A stretch of 64,000 nucleotides of DNA from a virus. Taxonomy: Duplodnaviria > Heunggongvirae > Uroviricota > Caudoviricetes. The notes beneath the pieces were generated by a model. It saw only the letters and a list, made by a program, of their open reading frames with translations. It searched no databases and was not told the origin of the DNA. A program made the position numbers and the translations under genes. The stretch lies in IMG/VR virus record IMGVR_UViG_3300032167_000010. One strand, written 5' to 3'. Below are positions 56,350-64,000 of the stretch, one piece after another. Each line of letters opens with the position of its first letter. The stretch's first letter is position 1.

Positions 56350-56421
56350 GAGATGAAAATCTTATACATAGGTTTTATTCCTTTGTTGGCACCTTGATAT
56401 TCCTCCTGTCAAGGTGCTTTT
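56350..56421 (+). ncRNA. Candidate small RNA or attenuated leader with anti-SD terminator loop
   Basis: Promoter motif at 56335-56347; stem GCACCTTGA/TCAAGGTGC with loop TATTCCTCCTG and T-run. Confidence 0.45.
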
Positions 56422-59442: not shown

Positions 59443-59928
59443 ATGAGATACAATACCATTAGACAGATGGATATCGCTAACGGACCTGGTTGCCGAGTAT
59501 CGATATTCGTTCAAGGATGTGAATTCGACTGCCCTGGCTGTTTCAACACAGTAGCTAAAGACTTTAGTGGTGGTAAAGAATTTACGGATCAAACAATGGA
59601 ACTCCTCCTAGATCTCGCTAAGCCTGACTACATAGCAGGCATTAGTTGTCTGGGAGGGGAACCTCTTCATCCGCAGAACCGTCAAGCTGTTCTAGACCTA
59701 GTGAAGAAATTTAAGTCAGTATATCCCAATAAAACGGTTTGGATTTGGACTGGATACCTTTGGGAAGCTGTAGCATCTGACCTAATTAACTCTGAAGTAG
59801 ACGTAGTAGTCGATGGTAGATTTGTGGAAGCCTTAAAAGATCTTAGACTTAAGTATCGAGGAAGTAGTAATCAAAGGATTATTGATGTCAAAAAATCAAC
59901 TGCGGACTCTATAACATTATATAAATAA
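59443..59928 (+). CDS. nrdG: Class III RNR activating radical-SAM enzyme
   Basis: NGPGCRVSIFVQGCEFDCPGCFN, GGEP and RGSSNQRII. Confidence 0.96.
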   Translation: MRYNTIRQMDIANGPGCRVSIFVQGCEFDCPGCFNTVAKDFSGGKEFTDQTMELLLDLAKPDYIAGISCLGGEPLHPQNRQAVLDLVKKFKSVYPNKTVWIWTGYLWEAVASDLINSEVDVVVDGRFVEALKDLRLKYRGSSNQRIIDVKKSTADSITLYK

Positions 59929-59969
59929 ACGCGCGTAACGCGTGCGCACACGTATAACGTTTGTTATTA

Positions 59970-59998
59970 TTGACAAAACATTGCTTTTTGTTTAAAAT
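59970..59998 (+). promoter_or_regulatory. Sigma70-type promoter TTGACA-17-TAAAAT
   Basis: Near-consensus with 17 nt spacing. Confidence 0.55.
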
Positions 59999-60028
59999 AA
60001 CAAACGTTATTTTTTTTATATAAAAATG

Positions 60029-60057
60029 TTTACAAAATAACTTACCTATGTTATAAT
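60029..60057 (+). promoter_or_regulatory. Early promoter TTTACA-17-TGtTATAAT
   Basis: Consensus spacing with extended -10. Confidence 0.8.
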
Positions 60058-60063
60058 AAAGAA

Positions 60064-60200
60064 GTGCTATCCCAAAGCGCACACACTAAATACTCTATTC
60101 AAGCTGTCTAACGAGGCACAGAAGGAAAATAACATGTCCTCACTATTCTCATAACTCCCTATGTTCCAGAGTTAACGATCTTCCTTCTGTGTTCTCCTAC
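60064..60200 (+). ncRNA. Candidate structured RNA A
   Basis: 5' GTGC..GCAC hairpin; stem CACAGAAGGAA (60117-60127)/TTCCTTCTGTG (60181-60191); paralog at 62049. Confidence 0.6.
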
Positions 60201-60243
60201 ATAAAAATATTTTAAAATTTTTTTTTAAAGTGCCGCAAAACAG

Positions 60244-60272
60244 TTTACAAAGTTTTAATTTTATGTTATAAT
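60244..60272 (+). promoter_or_regulatory. Early promoter TTTACA-17-TGtTATAAT
   Basis: Preceded by AAAACAG and an A/T tract. Confidence 0.8.
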
Positions 60273-60365
60273 ATAAATGTAAGATTGATTATACCCCTTT
60301 GGGTTGCAGTTAATCCTAAATTAAACATATTATACCATAAAGGTATTATTTTGGAGGACTTACAT

Positions 60366-60593
60366 ATGGAAGTTAATAAGAATACAGATTGGACAGGCTA
60401 TTTAGTGAGACCTAAAAAAGAATGGCTTAATCCTAACGAACACGCTCATCCTTATGTTGTGATAGAAGACAGAGGACCTAGGGTGCTTATTCAGCTCTTA
60501 CCACAGTATCAGCCTAAGAACCTGACTTTTCCCTGCATAGAGTCTGGGTTTAAAAATTGGTATGAAGTAATTGATACTAAGTTAGTTAAATAA
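60366..60593 (+). CDS. Early hypothetical protein
   Basis: SD GGAGG before ATG at 60366 (preferred over TTG at 60285). Confidence 0.7.
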   Translation: MEVNKNTDWTGYLVRPKKEWLNPNEHAHPYVVIEDRGPRVLIQLLPQYQPKNLTFPCIESGFKNWYEVIDTKLVK

Positions 60594-60608
60594 TTAAGGA
60601 GGATACAT

Positions 60609-60956
60609 ATGTTGGAACCTGGAAAAGTTTATACGCTGGATATACCGGTAAAAGAAATTAGTAGAGTACTTGTTGCTGAAGGTTATACCAAGAAAGTAGA
60701 TTGTAAAAACTATTGGGATGCACACGGCGAAAGACACTACGACTTTAAGGCACCAACTCAATATAAATTCGATAGACCTAAGAAGTTCGAACTTTATAGA
60801 GTTGAAAGAGAATATCAATTTAATTATACTGGAAGTTCAGTATACGAATATCTTTTTCTTTACATTGATGGCGAGAAGTTAGATGTTGGCGAGATTACAG
60901 AGTTTAGAGAACTTAAAACAAAGATTAATCTTGATTGTTGCGTCGGGGCAGGTTAA
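60609..60956 (+). CDS. Early hypothetical protein
   Basis: SD AAGGAGG. Confidence 0.75.
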   Translation: MLEPGKVYTLDIPVKEISRVLVAEGYTKKVDCKNYWDAHGERHYDFKAPTQYKFDRPKKFELYRVEREYQFNYTGSSVYEYLFLYIDGEKLDVGEITEFRELKTKINLDCCVGAG

Positions 60957-60997
60957 TAAAAATTTTTTAAAAACTTTCAAAAATTACCAAAAAACAG

Positions 60998-61026
60998 TTT
61001 ACAAATCAATTAAAACATGTTATAAT
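60998..61026 (+). promoter_or_regulatory. Early promoter TTTACA-17-TGtTATAAT
   Basis: Consensus. Confidence 0.8.
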
Positions 61027-61077
61027 ATAAATGTAAGTTGACGAAATACTTACTAATACATATAAGAGGTTATAAAA

Positions 61078-61374
61078 ATGTACGGAAAGGAAACAGAAAA
61101 GAAGATTGAAGAACGTTTATTAGCAACTCATATTTCAGCTAATACTGAATTTGAAAAAGCTTGTTATGCAGGTGATAGTCAAAAGATTATGTCTATAGTT
61201 GAAACTGAAATGGAAAAGAATAACTTATTTACTAAAGGTTCACAAAAACTTAAGACAGATATTCTTAATATGCTTCAAGGAAAGATAAAAGTTCCTTCTT
61301 GGCAAGGACAACAAATTTTAATGTTTGTCTGGAACTCAAGATTAGCCGGTTGTGGTTATGCGGTTACGAAATAG
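61078..61374 (+). CDS. Early hypothetical protein
   Basis: SD AAGAGG. Confidence 0.75.
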   Translation: MYGKETEKKIEERLLATHISANTEFEKACYAGDSQKIMSIVETEMEKNNLFTKGSQKLKTDILNMLQGKIKVPSWQGQQILMFVWNSRLAGCGYAVTK

Positions 61375-61406
61375 TACATATTAAAAATTAAGTGAGGAAA
61401 CATAAT

Positions 61407-62009
61407 ATGACAATTAAAGATTTACAAAATAACGAAGAATTATTAAATTCTATTGTAGAAGACCTTGAAGACTTCGATGAGAACACTGAAGTCGTATATG
61501 AAGTCTGGGCATTTGGTTACGACGAAAACGATGAAATTACCGATGCTGAACTTTGTCTATTTAATTCTACCGACCCGGAAGTTGCAGTTAATTATGCTAA
61601 GACAGTAGAACTTGCTGACGTAATCCATCAAACTGAAAACGGACCTTGTTCTTCTAACAAAGTATTTAGAATTGCAGTAGAAGTTGAAACTGTTGTACCT
61701 ATTAATGACGACCTTGTAAACGTAGGAACTGTTTATTCTAAGACTCTGTGGGAAGCACCGACCTATGACGGACCTGAAGAAGATGAAGAAGAAGTTGATG
61801 TAGTTTATATTGTTAATAGAAGTGATTATGAAATTTTAGAAGATAATACGCTAAAGGTAAGCTGTGATCTTTTGAAAGGTTATAATAAAAATGATACAGT
61901 ACTTATCTGCCTTCCTCACGAAGAGAACGACTTTGTATTGTCTTATAAGATTATGTCTAGAGTGATGTACGAAGACGGCGATTATTACCACTGTGAACTT
62001 ACTTATTAA
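61407..62009 (+). CDS. Early acidic hypothetical protein
   Basis: SD GAGGA before ATG at 61407. Confidence 0.75.
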   Translation: MTIKDLQNNEELLNSIVEDLEDFDENTEVVYEVWAFGYDENDEITDAELCLFNSTDPEVAVNYAKTVELADVIHQTENGPCSSNKVFRIAVEVETVVPINDDLVNVGTVYSKTLWEAPTYDGPEEDEEEVDVVYIVNRSDYEILEDNTLKVSCDLLKGYNKNDTVLICLPHEENDFVLSYKIMSRVMYEDGDYYHCELTY

Positions 62010-62012
62010 GTA

Positions 62013-62041
62013 TTTACAAATCTTCGTACGTATATTATAAT
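62013..62041 (+). promoter_or_regulatory. Early promoter TTTACA-17-TATAAT
   Basis: Consensus spacing. Confidence 0.75.
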
Positions 62042-62048
62042 AATGAAT

Positions 62049-62160
62049 GTGCTCACCGGCACGCTATCCGTATTCCCTAGTTAACATGACAGGAAAACAC
62101 AGAAGGAACGTCTGACAATCCTCTTAAAGCCCTTAACACACTTTCTGTGTTTTCCTTACA
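62049..62160 (+). ncRNA. Candidate structured RNA B
   Basis: 5' GTGC-TCACCG-GCAC hairpin; 15 bp stem 62092-62106/62141-62155. Confidence 0.6.
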
Positions 62161-62203
62161 TAAAAATATTTTTAAAAATTTTTAAAAAAGTGCGTTAAAA
62201 CAG

Positions 62204-62232
62204 TTTACAAATATTGGAAAATGTGATATAAT
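62204..62232 (+). promoter_or_regulatory. Early promoter TTTACA-17-TGaTATAAT
   Basis: Consensus. Confidence 0.8.
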
Positions 62233-62265
62233 ATAATTACAAAATAATTTTGGAGGAAATTAAAT

Positions 62266-62580
62266 ATGACAGTTTATGTTGTTTGTTGGGGCTCAGGCAC
62301 TCACGATTGGGATGAAGAGGAAGTTTATACTTACACTAATGTACATAATGTATATATGTCTTTAGATATAGCAAGAGAGGGTTTAGTAAAACTTAAAGAA
62401 GAATTTTATAATGAAATTGTTAATGACCCTGACTTCGAAGAAGAAGATAGAGAGGAAGTAAAAAAGAATACTTACATACACGGTTCGGCTGAAGAGAATG
62501 AATTTACAATTGACACCACTTTTGGTTGTAATACACAAGAAGTCTATATTCGTATTGTAGAAAAAGAAATTATTGAATAA
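62266..62580 (+). CDS. Early acidic hypothetical protein
   Basis: SD GGAGG. Confidence 0.75.
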   Translation: MTVYVVCWGSGTHDWDEEEVYTYTNVHNVYMSLDIAREGLVKLKEEFYNEIVNDPDFEEEDREEVKKNTYIHGSAEENEFTIDTTFGCNTQEVYIRIVEKEIIE

Positions 62581-63326
62581 TGGAGGATATATATATGTTT
62601 TATAAGAAAGGAATTGATATTACAAACGACAAACAAATGTTTAATTTTTTGAAAGACCATTTTGCTTATCCTACAATGAACTCTTGGAATGGCCTTTACT
62701 CAATTGCGAACAATGTAAAAGTTCATAAACTTAACTTATCAGGAGATTGCTGGACTGCACTTGCCTTACTTCAAGCTGACGAATACTTTACTATCAATAT
62801 GATGATTGAAGATTGGGAAATCACTCATCCAGGTTATAGTGTTGGTTTTAATGGTAGAAGCGGTGGCTACTTAGTTTTATATAACGACAAAGGCTATAAA
62901 TCAATTCTTCCTGACGAAATCAATGAATGTGTAGACTACGAAGAATATAAACGTTGGTGCAAAGACTATTGCGGTTCTGTAAAGGAAAATAGAAAAGACC
63001 TTGTTTACTACACAAAGTTAGTACAAGACTTTGATAAACTCTGTGATGAGCTTAGAGACTACTGTGATGAATTATCTAATAAAAACTTTGCAGTAGAAGA
63101 AATGCAGAAATCCGTAGAAGCTTTTAATGACAGATATTATGATGACCTTTGCTATCTTAATATTAGTAATCTTGTTTGCGAAGACAACGGTTGCGTAGAC
63201 TGCTCAGAAATACGTGCGTTAGACTGTTTGTTCGAAGCCTTCAAAAGAATAGCTAGTCGTCCTGACAGTGGTTATAAACTTAAGTTTACTGAAGATGATT
63301 GCTGTCTTCAATTGGTAGAAGAATAA
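62580..63326 (+). CDS. Early hypothetical protein
   Basis: TAATG coupling; 248 aa; GFNGRSGGY. Confidence 0.8.
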   Translation: MEDIYMFYKKGIDITNDKQMFNFLKDHFAYPTMNSWNGLYSIANNVKVHKLNLSGDCWTALALLQADEYFTINMMIEDWEITHPGYSVGFNGRSGGYLVLYNDKGYKSILPDEINECVDYEEYKRWCKDYCGSVKENRKDLVYYTKLVQDFDKLCDELRDYCDELSNKNFAVEEMQKSVEAFNDRYYDDLCYLNISNLVCEDNGCVDCSEIRALDCLFEAFKRIASRPDSGYKLKFTEDDCCLQLVEE

Positions 63327-63359
63327 TTGTAAAAATTTGTAAAAAGCTGTCAAAAACAG

Positions 63360-63388
63360 TTTACAAACGTCTAATTTTGTGATATAAT
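63360..63388 (+). promoter_or_regulatory. Early promoter TTTACA-17-TGaTATAAT
   Basis: Consensus. Confidence 0.8.
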
Positions 63389-63420
63389 AGTACATATAAT
63401 GTTTTTGGAGGAAATACATA

Positions 63421-64000
63421 ATGTTAAATGAAACTAAGAAAGACCTTGTTTTTAATGCTCATAAACTAGTTAGGCCTTATGAGAGCTATACTATCGATGA
63501 GTTAGCGGATGCTTATTGCGAAGCGGTTGATACTAATAACAAAGCGCTTAAAGATATTTATATCTCCGCTTTGATACTTCGCTTTTGGTATACTATCGAT
63601 AAGATGTATCGTTCTAATACGGTAGCTCCTTGCTTAGAACGAACTGATTTTTTCTGGTGGTTGTATGAAGCGATAGAATATGCTTGTAAGTATAGAGGCT
63701 GGAAAGACCCTGCTAAGAAGCTTAATGCTCAGCAATGTATAAATAAGTGTATCAATACTATCAAGCTTCAAAAATATTATGACCTTCGTCTAGATAAGAA
63801 TAAGACAGTTAATCATTGCACTAGTCTCGAAACTCCTATTTGTGGTGGAGATGGTGATGATGCGACTAAAACTTTAGGTGACACTATCGAAACTAATGAC
63901 AATATAGACGAAAGCTCTATTGGTATGACTTTGTTAGTACAAAGCTATATAGACCGTAATAAAATAGTAGAGGCAGTTTTAATTGATAATATTGTTAATA
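63421..64000 (+). CDS. Sigma70-family sigma factor-like protein (3' partial)
   Basis: Not in the ORF track; frame stays open to the window end. ALILRFWYTIDKMY...DFFWWLYEAIEYA resembles region 2; SLETPICGGDGDDATKTLGDTI resembles the region 3 SLDxP...TLGD motif. Confidence 0.7.
   Translation, partial: MLNETKKDLVFNAHKLVRPYESYTIDELADAYCEAVDTNNKALKDIYISALILRFWYTIDKMYRSNTVAPCLERTDFFWWLYEAIEYACKYRGWKDPAKKLNAQQCINKCINTIKLQKYYDLRLDKNKTVNHCTSLETPICGGDGDDATKTLGDTIETNDNIDESSIGMTLLVQSYIDRNKIVEAVLIDNIVN

Follow-up and report, generated by a model that had tools for sequence, protein, structure and literature searches.

A covariation-supported family of structured RNAs at the head of the early region of related rumen phages

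C-rich small RNAs of Gram-positive bacteria, such as RsaE/RoxS, LhrC, and the hairpins of RNAIII, pair with ribosome-binding sites (PMC6158497, PMC8216469, PMC2790875). Among phages, the put RNA of HK022, about 70 nt long, folds compactly and binds the zinc-binding domain of RNA polymerase (PMC9378689), the PeSL cassettes of T4-type phages are short terminator hairpins upstream of an early promoter (PMC2839356, PMC4122927), and the RegB nuclease of T4 cuts early mRNAs at their ribosome-binding sites (PMC2988021). A bacterial endoribonuclease, the MazF of Bacillus subtilis, Listeria, and Staphylococcus aureus, is reported to cut the strict hexamer U^ACAUA (2026 preprint, bioRxiv 10.64898/2026.08.06.743204). 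Here, we analyze two paralogous RNA units, each lying directly after a predicted early promoter in a 64,000-nt stretch (hereinafter the window) of the Caudoviricetes record IMGVR_UViG_3300032167_000010, together with the family of phage RNAs to which they belong.

Like RsaE/RoxS, LhrC, and RNAIII, the units have their own promoters and carry UCCC/CCUC-type motifs in unpaired loops of a stable scaffold, whose G-poor strands suit G-rich ribosome-binding sites. However, they are phage-encoded and share no sequence or structure homology with those RNAs (no Rfam match); in place of several small hairpins they have one long hypervariable closing helix (hereinafter P2) around a loop of 32-89 nt, and they usually end not in a terminator but in a conserved UACAUA tail. 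The sequence comparisons presented below give good support to a new structured RNA family, backed by covariation and not previously described. Little of the non-coding RNA repertoire of phages has been charted; covariation support exists for very few of these RNAs, and almost none of them are from large uncultured phages that infect Firmicutes of the gut and rumen. The present family provides a clean structural model with 28 natural variants, sits at a defined place where the early program begins, and offers two handles on function, namely the C-rich loops and the UACAUA hexamer.

Structure, covariation, and distribution of the RNA family

The initial annotation of the window had proposed for both copies a succession of promoter, GUGC...GCAC hairpin, linker, long stem, loop, tail, and next promoter, and we recovered every one of these elements where it had been placed (Table 1). 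The 5' hairpins begin 7-8 nt past the -10 element, and the long helices of 13-16 bp share a CACAGAAGG core; in copy 1 this helix is formed by 60115-60127 with 60181-60193 and can be extended to 60113 with 60197. The loop of copy 1 has an optional inner hairpin (UAACUC/GAGUUA) that is also present in some other family members. The + strand of copy 1 folds at -27.4 kcal/mol (z = -2.9) and that of copy 2 at -27.7 kcal/mol (z = -3.4); none of 200 shuffles folds as well as either copy, and the reverse strands have weaker z-scores. Throughout the 167.8-kb genome, the CACAGAAGG and CCTTCTGTG words, as well as a 3' 16-mer, TACATAAAAATATTTT (at 60198 and 62157), occur at these two sites only. A scan of the whole window with Rfam 15, whose families include RsaE, RoxS, LhrC, C4, 6S, riboswitches, and ribozymes, gave no match at gathering thresholds, agreeing with the annotation's failure to recognize a known RNA family; even at E-values of up to 10, the region 59900-62300 returned just four chance-level matches, none of them over either RNA, and ARAGORN found no tRNA or tmRNA in the window. 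The absence of a shared open reading frame (ORF), which had likewise been claimed, holds for the + strand, where a six-codon ATG frame of copy 1 is lost (ATG to ACG) in the ortholog from the related contig L052. We accordingly rejected small-ORF readings; a minus-strand AUG within the reverse complement of AUCCUCAU is not conserved either, and the differences in loop length, judged by eye, are not multiples of three. As for the tail, the TACATA after the helix proved genuine, but the A/T-rich stretch that follows it is no RNA signature, being the upstream element common to nearly all early promoters; the conservation of UACAUA as a signal did not figure in that first description.

Searches with blastn of the RNAs against related loci recovered A/T-rich tails only, and the homologs came instead via synteny and promoters. 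In loci collected via NrdD, we found ORF-free promoter-driven units at the position of copy 2, i.e., between the gene for an acidic protein of ~200 amino acids (aa) and the MEKLYIVCWGS or MFYK genes (L005, L009, L013, and L042). These have the layout of the window copies with different helix sequences. A metagenome scan with the conserved MFYK protein contributed 80 further early-region fragments. As MAFFT alignments placed the helices out of register, we used covariance-model alignments, with model R1 built from L009 and L013 and model R2 from 12 sequences. R1 recovered L042, L005, and copy 1 and, along with the alignment-free scan described below, many additional units. R2 produced 26 + strand matches in 839 kb of related loci, which L129 and L079 raise to a total of 28 members, spread over about 20 contigs of related rumen phages. 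This model scored copy 1 at 69.4 bits (E 1.5e-11) and copy 2 at 28.7 bits (E 0.012), and its reverse-strand matches had far lower scores. Two weak model matches (G004:18802-18933 and G000:5160-5284) were discarded as they lie inside coding sequence.

The covarying structure that had been proposed from the two copies was also upheld in these further homologs. In a 24-sequence alignment 95.6% of the cells form standard pairs, and changes on both sides are seen at 16 of the 17 P2 pairs and two of the four pairs of the 5' hairpin (helix 1), which is 95% paired in the alignments. Cells with changes on both sides number 118, against 32 +/- 5 in shuffles, with 0 of 500 shuffles reaching the observed count; this count comes from alignments fitted to the model. 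Sliding the partner strand by 1-3 columns lowers pairing to 37-55%, and the 12-sequence alignment presents the same picture. Independently of any alignment, each sequence taken by itself has an ungapped helix of 11-22 bp (G-U allowed) in the same place. An alignment-free scan for helices of at least 10 bp that close a loop of 20-90 nt and lie within 8 nt of TACATA showed the members to have at least eight unrelated helix sequences. It is thus P2 that is hypervariable, its sequence being free to vary while pairing is kept. The 5' strand of P2 nevertheless stays purine-rich (77%) and the 3' strand pyrimidine-rich, a bias that we attribute to compensatory change through G-U intermediates. G-U pairs fill about 30 cells of the 24-sequence alignment; since each would read as an A-C mismatch on the opposite strand or in DNA, the functional strand is the + strand, as the promoter direction and the model scores likewise indicate.

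All copies lie within the first few kb of the early array. Two copies per contig are found in L052, L057, L067, and L069, and in L052 the two positions held by the window copies are occupied by their respective orthologs. This shows the pair to be old and maintained and not the product of a recent duplication, and the simple promoter duplication that had been entertained as an alternative does not account for it. Whole-contig searches of the phage's own genome and of four related records returned no further copies. Beyond the clade, neither blastn with the 2.4-kb region nor tblastn with the 200-aa neighbor matched any GenBank phage, and distant fecal phages found through NrdD have other promoters and no such element. 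The exact 3'-motif pattern had no match in IMG/VR, where the CACAGAAGG-type pattern hit the L042 contig alone; in bacterial assemblies the latter gave one true member (L129) and one false match (L130). The true member (L129:4157-4275, minus strand) scores 53.4 bits and is flanked by the same promoters; its contig, 24.5 kb in length, had been binned as an uncultured Bacteroidales. Going by the style of its promoters and ribosome-binding sites, this is probably a mis-binned phage contig and not a clue to the host.

In three close relatives (L004, L008, and L020) the position of copy 2, between the acidic 200-aa gene and the MFYK gene, holds no RNA unit, one of them (L020) having instead a promoter and a 10-bp hairpin of ~70 nt after nrdG. 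The cassette has hence been gained and lost within the clade. Such patchiness is what one might expect of a DNA-level or architectural feature whose RNA has no function, be it a mobile cassette of promoter and stem-loop that promotes recombination, an inverted-repeat site for a protein, or a 3' stabilizer hairpin of the upstream mRNA. The hyperplastic early region with its repeated promoters is in keeping with this, and the PeSL cassettes supply a precedent (PMC2839356, PMC4122927), being likewise repeated promoter-associated stem-loops of a plastic early region that are patchy among close relatives. However, in our case the promoter drives a predicted RNA of 110-190 nt with covarying helices and conserved loop motifs, and the units do not fit the definition of a PeSL. 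Moreover, the G-U pairs would turn into A-C mismatches if the DNA or the opposite strand were the functional form, a dedicated promoter precedes the element, and the 5' hairpin lies exactly at the transcript start. The loops and linkers are conserved above the neighboring gene, and the composition is skewed in a strand-specific manner. None of these features is needed for recombination or for a DNA-binding site, and we consider a purely architectural role very unlikely.

One further ORF-free unit lies beyond the window (genome 89591-89742). It resembles the family in having a 9-bp closing helix (GCCGCGGGG with CUCCGUGGC), a U/C-rich loop of ~75 nt with CUCCUCC, and then CACAUAA and an A/U-rich stretch, but it has another promoter type, a canonical terminator, and no 5' hairpin, and neither R1 nor R2 detects it. 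If it is related to the family at all, it is so only distantly.

C-rich loops and candidate functions of the RNA

The unpaired regions of the family stand out in composition: the loops have 26.6% C and 10.4% G, and the linkers 25% C and 6.8% G, versus 14.6% C and 19.4% G for the + strand of the genome (C to G ratios of 2.6, 3.7, and 0.75, respectively). UCCC and CCUC each occur in 16 of 23 loops and CCCC in 12 of 23, and the motifs common to loops across the family are (G)CAUCCUCA, UCCCC(U), and CCUUAAC. Minimum-energy folding leaves the loops unpaired. A comparison of the window phage with L052 gives 90.5% (RNA2) and 78.9% (RNA1) identity for the orthologous RNAs, as against 70% for the adjacent gene; selection therefore acts on the sequence and not on pairing alone. 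The guide-like or anti-CRISPR role that the initial annotation had envisaged for variable loops is consequently unsupported: the loops share family motifs and are conserved (79-90% identical between orthologs versus 70% for the neighboring gene), and the variable part is the closing helix. A primer role, at an R-loop or a replication origin, was rejected on account of the G-poor RNA. Of the functions listed at the outset, a C-rich small RNA of the anti-Shine-Dalgarno type and a protein decoy are the best remaining candidates.

We tentatively favor the reading that the family comprises stable trans-acting early small RNAs that display C-rich single strands, a role that we regard as plausible from the sequences. 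Each unit would then encode a stable non-coding RNA (~110-190 nt) that the host RNA polymerase transcribes from an early promoter close to consensus, with the early timing predicted from the promoter type only. The long P2 holds open the G-poor, C-rich loop; the scaffold would protect the RNA ends, and the exposed UCCUC or UCCCC-type motifs would act in trans, either by pairing with G-rich sequences such as ribosome-binding sites or by sequestering a protein with affinity for C-rich single-stranded RNA. The 3' end would be set by an intrinsic terminator in two relatives and elsewhere probably by an endonucleolytic cut at the UACAUA after P2, which would leave the helix as the protective 3' end and free the RNA from any transcript that runs on into the following unit. 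What inclines us to this reading is that each element brings its own promoter, that the 5' hairpin and the closing helix would be protective, that the unpaired parts have the composition and motifs described above, that two members end in terminators, and that predicted pairing shows a modest excess. The varying loop length counts as well, as loops of 32 to 89 nt fit the display of linear motifs better than a compact fold. With respect to pairing, the predicted duplexes between the two loops and the translation-initiation regions of the phage reach -12.2 kcal/mol (shuffled, -10.3 +/- 0.7) and -10.3 kcal/mol (shuffled, -8.3 +/- 1.2), and the loops pair better with initiation regions than with random genome windows. 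Should the loops indeed act on ribosome-binding sites, this phage RNA family would be the equivalent of the C-rich small RNAs found in Gram-positive bacteria.

Several observations weigh against a trans-acting small RNA. The excess of pairing over shuffles is modest (z about -1.6 to -2.6), none of the top duplex predictions points to a convincing specific target in the phage, and an anti-Shine-Dalgarno RNA would also strike the strong GGAGG sites of the phage itself. Some members (L009 and L067:2029-2173) have only degenerate versions of the C-rich motifs, and the covariation counts, as noted above, derive from model-fitted alignments. Further, the location of all copies in the first few kb of the early array is not required by an RNA that acts purely in trans. 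Most members lack a terminator, making read-through into the next unit likely, and in L071 and L075 the element is a 5' leader, directly followed by a ribosome-binding site and start codon.

The last three of these observations favor the main rival, in which the element works in cis on the nascent RNA, either by modifying its own polymerase (anti-pausing or antitermination) in the manner of HK022 putL and putR or by tuning the downstream genes as a 5' leader. Like the put pair, these are two paralogous two-hairpin RNAs immediately downstream of phage early promoters, from which transcription would read through into early genes, obligatorily so where a terminator is absent, and their copies stand at the upstream end of a one-directional 26-kb array that holds several intrinsic terminators. 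Also reminiscent of put is a -10-like CATTATAAT in the linker of one subgroup, which recalls the -10-like pause element of putL (PMC9378689). In this subgroup (L057:1848-2003, L067:2029-2173, L069:2551-2709, L075:2819-2964, and L089:2265-2428) the CATTATAAT is followed by UUAACCUUAUCC, and it may either act as a sigma-dependent pause element or simply derive from a promoter. On the other hand, the G-poor, low-complexity loops, long, floppy, and variable in length, argue against a compact polymerase-binding fold, and no similarity to put is seen in sequence or structure. A second promoter follows the element: the next early promoter lies 21-60 nt downstream in 23 of 27 units, so that a leader role would be redundant, the next gene nearly always having a strong promoter of its own; the genes downstream vary among members. 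Two members (L067:1019-1176 and L079) have a strong canonical terminator at once after UACAUA. In the window no intrinsic terminator is predicted on the + strand from 59944 to 64000, and a classical terminator for the window copies themselves was rejected on this ground. On these grounds we consider action in cis rather unlikely.

A third possibility is that the unpaired stretches of 30-90 nt capture a single-strand-specific RNA-binding protein or serve as its point of entry, e.g., for Rho at a rut-like site, a KH-domain protein, or a cold-shock protein. Rho would end the RNA before the next promoter, or else a host factor would be titrated. Sites of the rut type are C-rich, G-poor, and unstructured, and the C to G ratios of loops and linkers given above match this description; in most members, no intrinsic terminator precedes the next promoter. 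However, here the C-rich part is enclosed by a strong helix, and the conserved motifs AUCCUCA and UCCCCU exceed mere composition; we deem a trap for Rho or another RNA-binding protein improbable.

The UACAUA signal of early transcripts

The second handle, the UACAUA hexamer, starts 0-8 nt past P2 in 26 of the 28 members, the other two having GCAUAU (L095) and UGUAUA (L098) in its place. It occurs once per 1.7 kb on the + strand, and in both window copies it lies outside the predicted helices. Two members (L042:3770-3885 and L053:236-345) carry a tandem second long helix, ungapped over 13 and 20 bp, which begins inside the first UACAUA, encloses a loop of 59-81 nt, and ends in another UACAUA; the repeating unit seems to be a helix followed by the hexamer.

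The 26.4-kb early region (genome 70600-97000; window 59987 onward) has 41 UACAUA sites on the sense strand versus 11-15 expected, an excess of ~3-fold (e.g., window 60361, 60604, 61057, 61375, 63391, and 63415), whereas outside the early region and on the opposite strand the counts are at or below expectation. Leaders or intercistronic spacers hold 20 of the 41 sites. Between the ribosome-binding site and the start codon, UACAUA is the top-ranked hexamer, present in 10 of 66 early genes versus one of 155 others (p = 2.8e-5). In the relatives about 7.7% of the early genes have it there; the contrast with their non-early side (7 of 90 versus two of 57) is not significant by itself. We also considered whether the UACAUA tail pairs with early mRNA 5' ends and rejected this, as the matches span no more than 5-7 bp and for the most part fall before the point where transcription probably starts. 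We conclude that UACAUA is a signal of early transcripts, and we advance as a hypothesis that it is a nuclease site.

What suggests a nuclease is the identity of the hexamer to the site of Bacillota MazF (bioRxiv 10.64898/2026.08.06.743204). In its fullest form, this idea would have the phage clade wire a UACAUA-specific endoribonuclease of the MazF type, most likely the host's, into its early program. The helix would present the strict U^ACAUA to the enzyme, and the RNA would be matured by the cut or would serve, in abundance, as decoy or sensor; early leaders would be cut by this nuclease too, which would shut down early translation, i.e., a RegB-like shut-off by a host toxin freed as host expression collapses. 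The exact single-stranded hexamer after P2, as in substrates of MazF (EndoA), and its recurrence at the end of the second tandem module both accord with this proposal. So do its sense-strand excess in the early region, its placement in leaders, and its position between ribosome-binding site and start codon, also in the relatives; the enrichment in early leaders and ribosome-binding sites parallels that of RegB sites in T4, which furnishes the precedent (PMC2988021). The nuclease, however, is a hypothetical one, and no mazF or mazE gene was found in the phage record, which is 74% complete. The match to MazF was noticed after the fact, a UACAUA beside the AUG may be just a favorable translation spacer, and two members have variants of the hexamer. 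The relatives' enrichment, moreover, is by itself not significant, and a cleavable decoy would hardly inhibit a multiple-turnover nuclease. We therefore judge both the presentation of the hexamer to a MazF-type enzyme and the wider early shut-off scheme unlikely, while noting that either could be combined with the trans-acting small RNA or with action in cis. If the hexamer were a nuclease site after all, a widespread toxin-antitoxin nuclease would be linked to the maturation of a phage RNA and to early-gene shut-off.

Genomic setting of the two units

The virus record that contains the window has a G+C content of 34%, and its NrdD is 81-85% identical to that of IMG/VR contigs of 220-233 kb. 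Many of the related contigs stem from assemblies that, by their names, we take to be rumen samples. The promoters, of the form TTTACA-17-TATAAT and often TG-extended, and the strong GGAGG ribosome-binding sites suggest that the host is Gram-positive (Bacillota-type). TTTACA-17-TATAAT sites number six in the window, versus 0.24 expected, and 23 in the whole genome. The one-directional early region starts downstream of nrdD-nrdG and extends, with 23 near-identical promoters, over ~26 kb. Except for NrdG, the neighboring genes in the window belong to no Pfam family. The parts of the two units and the promoters that follow them are collected in Table 1.

Table 1. Parts of the two RNA units and adjoining promoters (window coordinates)
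Feature	Position	Strand	Remarks
Promoter of RNA copy 1	60029..60057	+	TTTACA-17-TGTTATAAT; first promoter of the early array
Copy 1, 5'-terminal hairpin	60064..60082	+	GUGC...GCAC; starts ~7 nt past the -10 element
Copy 1, linker	60083..60112	+	A/C/U, G-poor
Copy 1, P2 5' strand	60113..60127	+	closing helix; purine-rich; GAGGCACAGAAGGAA
Copy 1, loop	60128..60180	+	53 nt; C-rich, G-poor; motifs GUCCUCA and AACUCCC
Copy 1, P2 3' strand	60181..60197	+	pyrimidine-rich
Copy 1, UACAUA hexamer	60198..60203	+	directly 3' of P2
Next early promoter after copy 1	60244..60272	+	drives gene 60366-60593
Promoter of RNA copy 2	62013..62041	+	no TG extension; directly after the stop codon of the upstream 200-aa gene
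Copy 2, 5'-terminal hairpin	62049..62062	+	
Copy 2, linker	62063..62090	+	G-poor
Copy 2, P2 5' strand	62091..62106	+	AGGAAAACACAGAAGG
Copy 2, loop	62107..62140	+	34 nt; motifs AAUCCUCUU and GCCCUUAAC
Copy 2, P2 3' strand	62141..62156	+	
Copy 2, UACAUA hexamer	62157..62162	+	
Next early promoter after copy 2	62204..62232	+	drives gene 62266-62580

Two other stem-loops in the window are worth recording. A perfect 15-bp inverted repeat after nrdG (59954-59968 with 59996-60010), followed by a T run (59954-60018 in all), is probably the nrdDG terminator; its 27-nt loop holds a promoter-like TTGACA-17-TAAAAT (59970-59998). Further upstream, the terminator scan picked up a 12-bp terminator hairpin (56388-56418) with UUCCUCC, an anti-Shine-Dalgarno-like sequence, in its loop.

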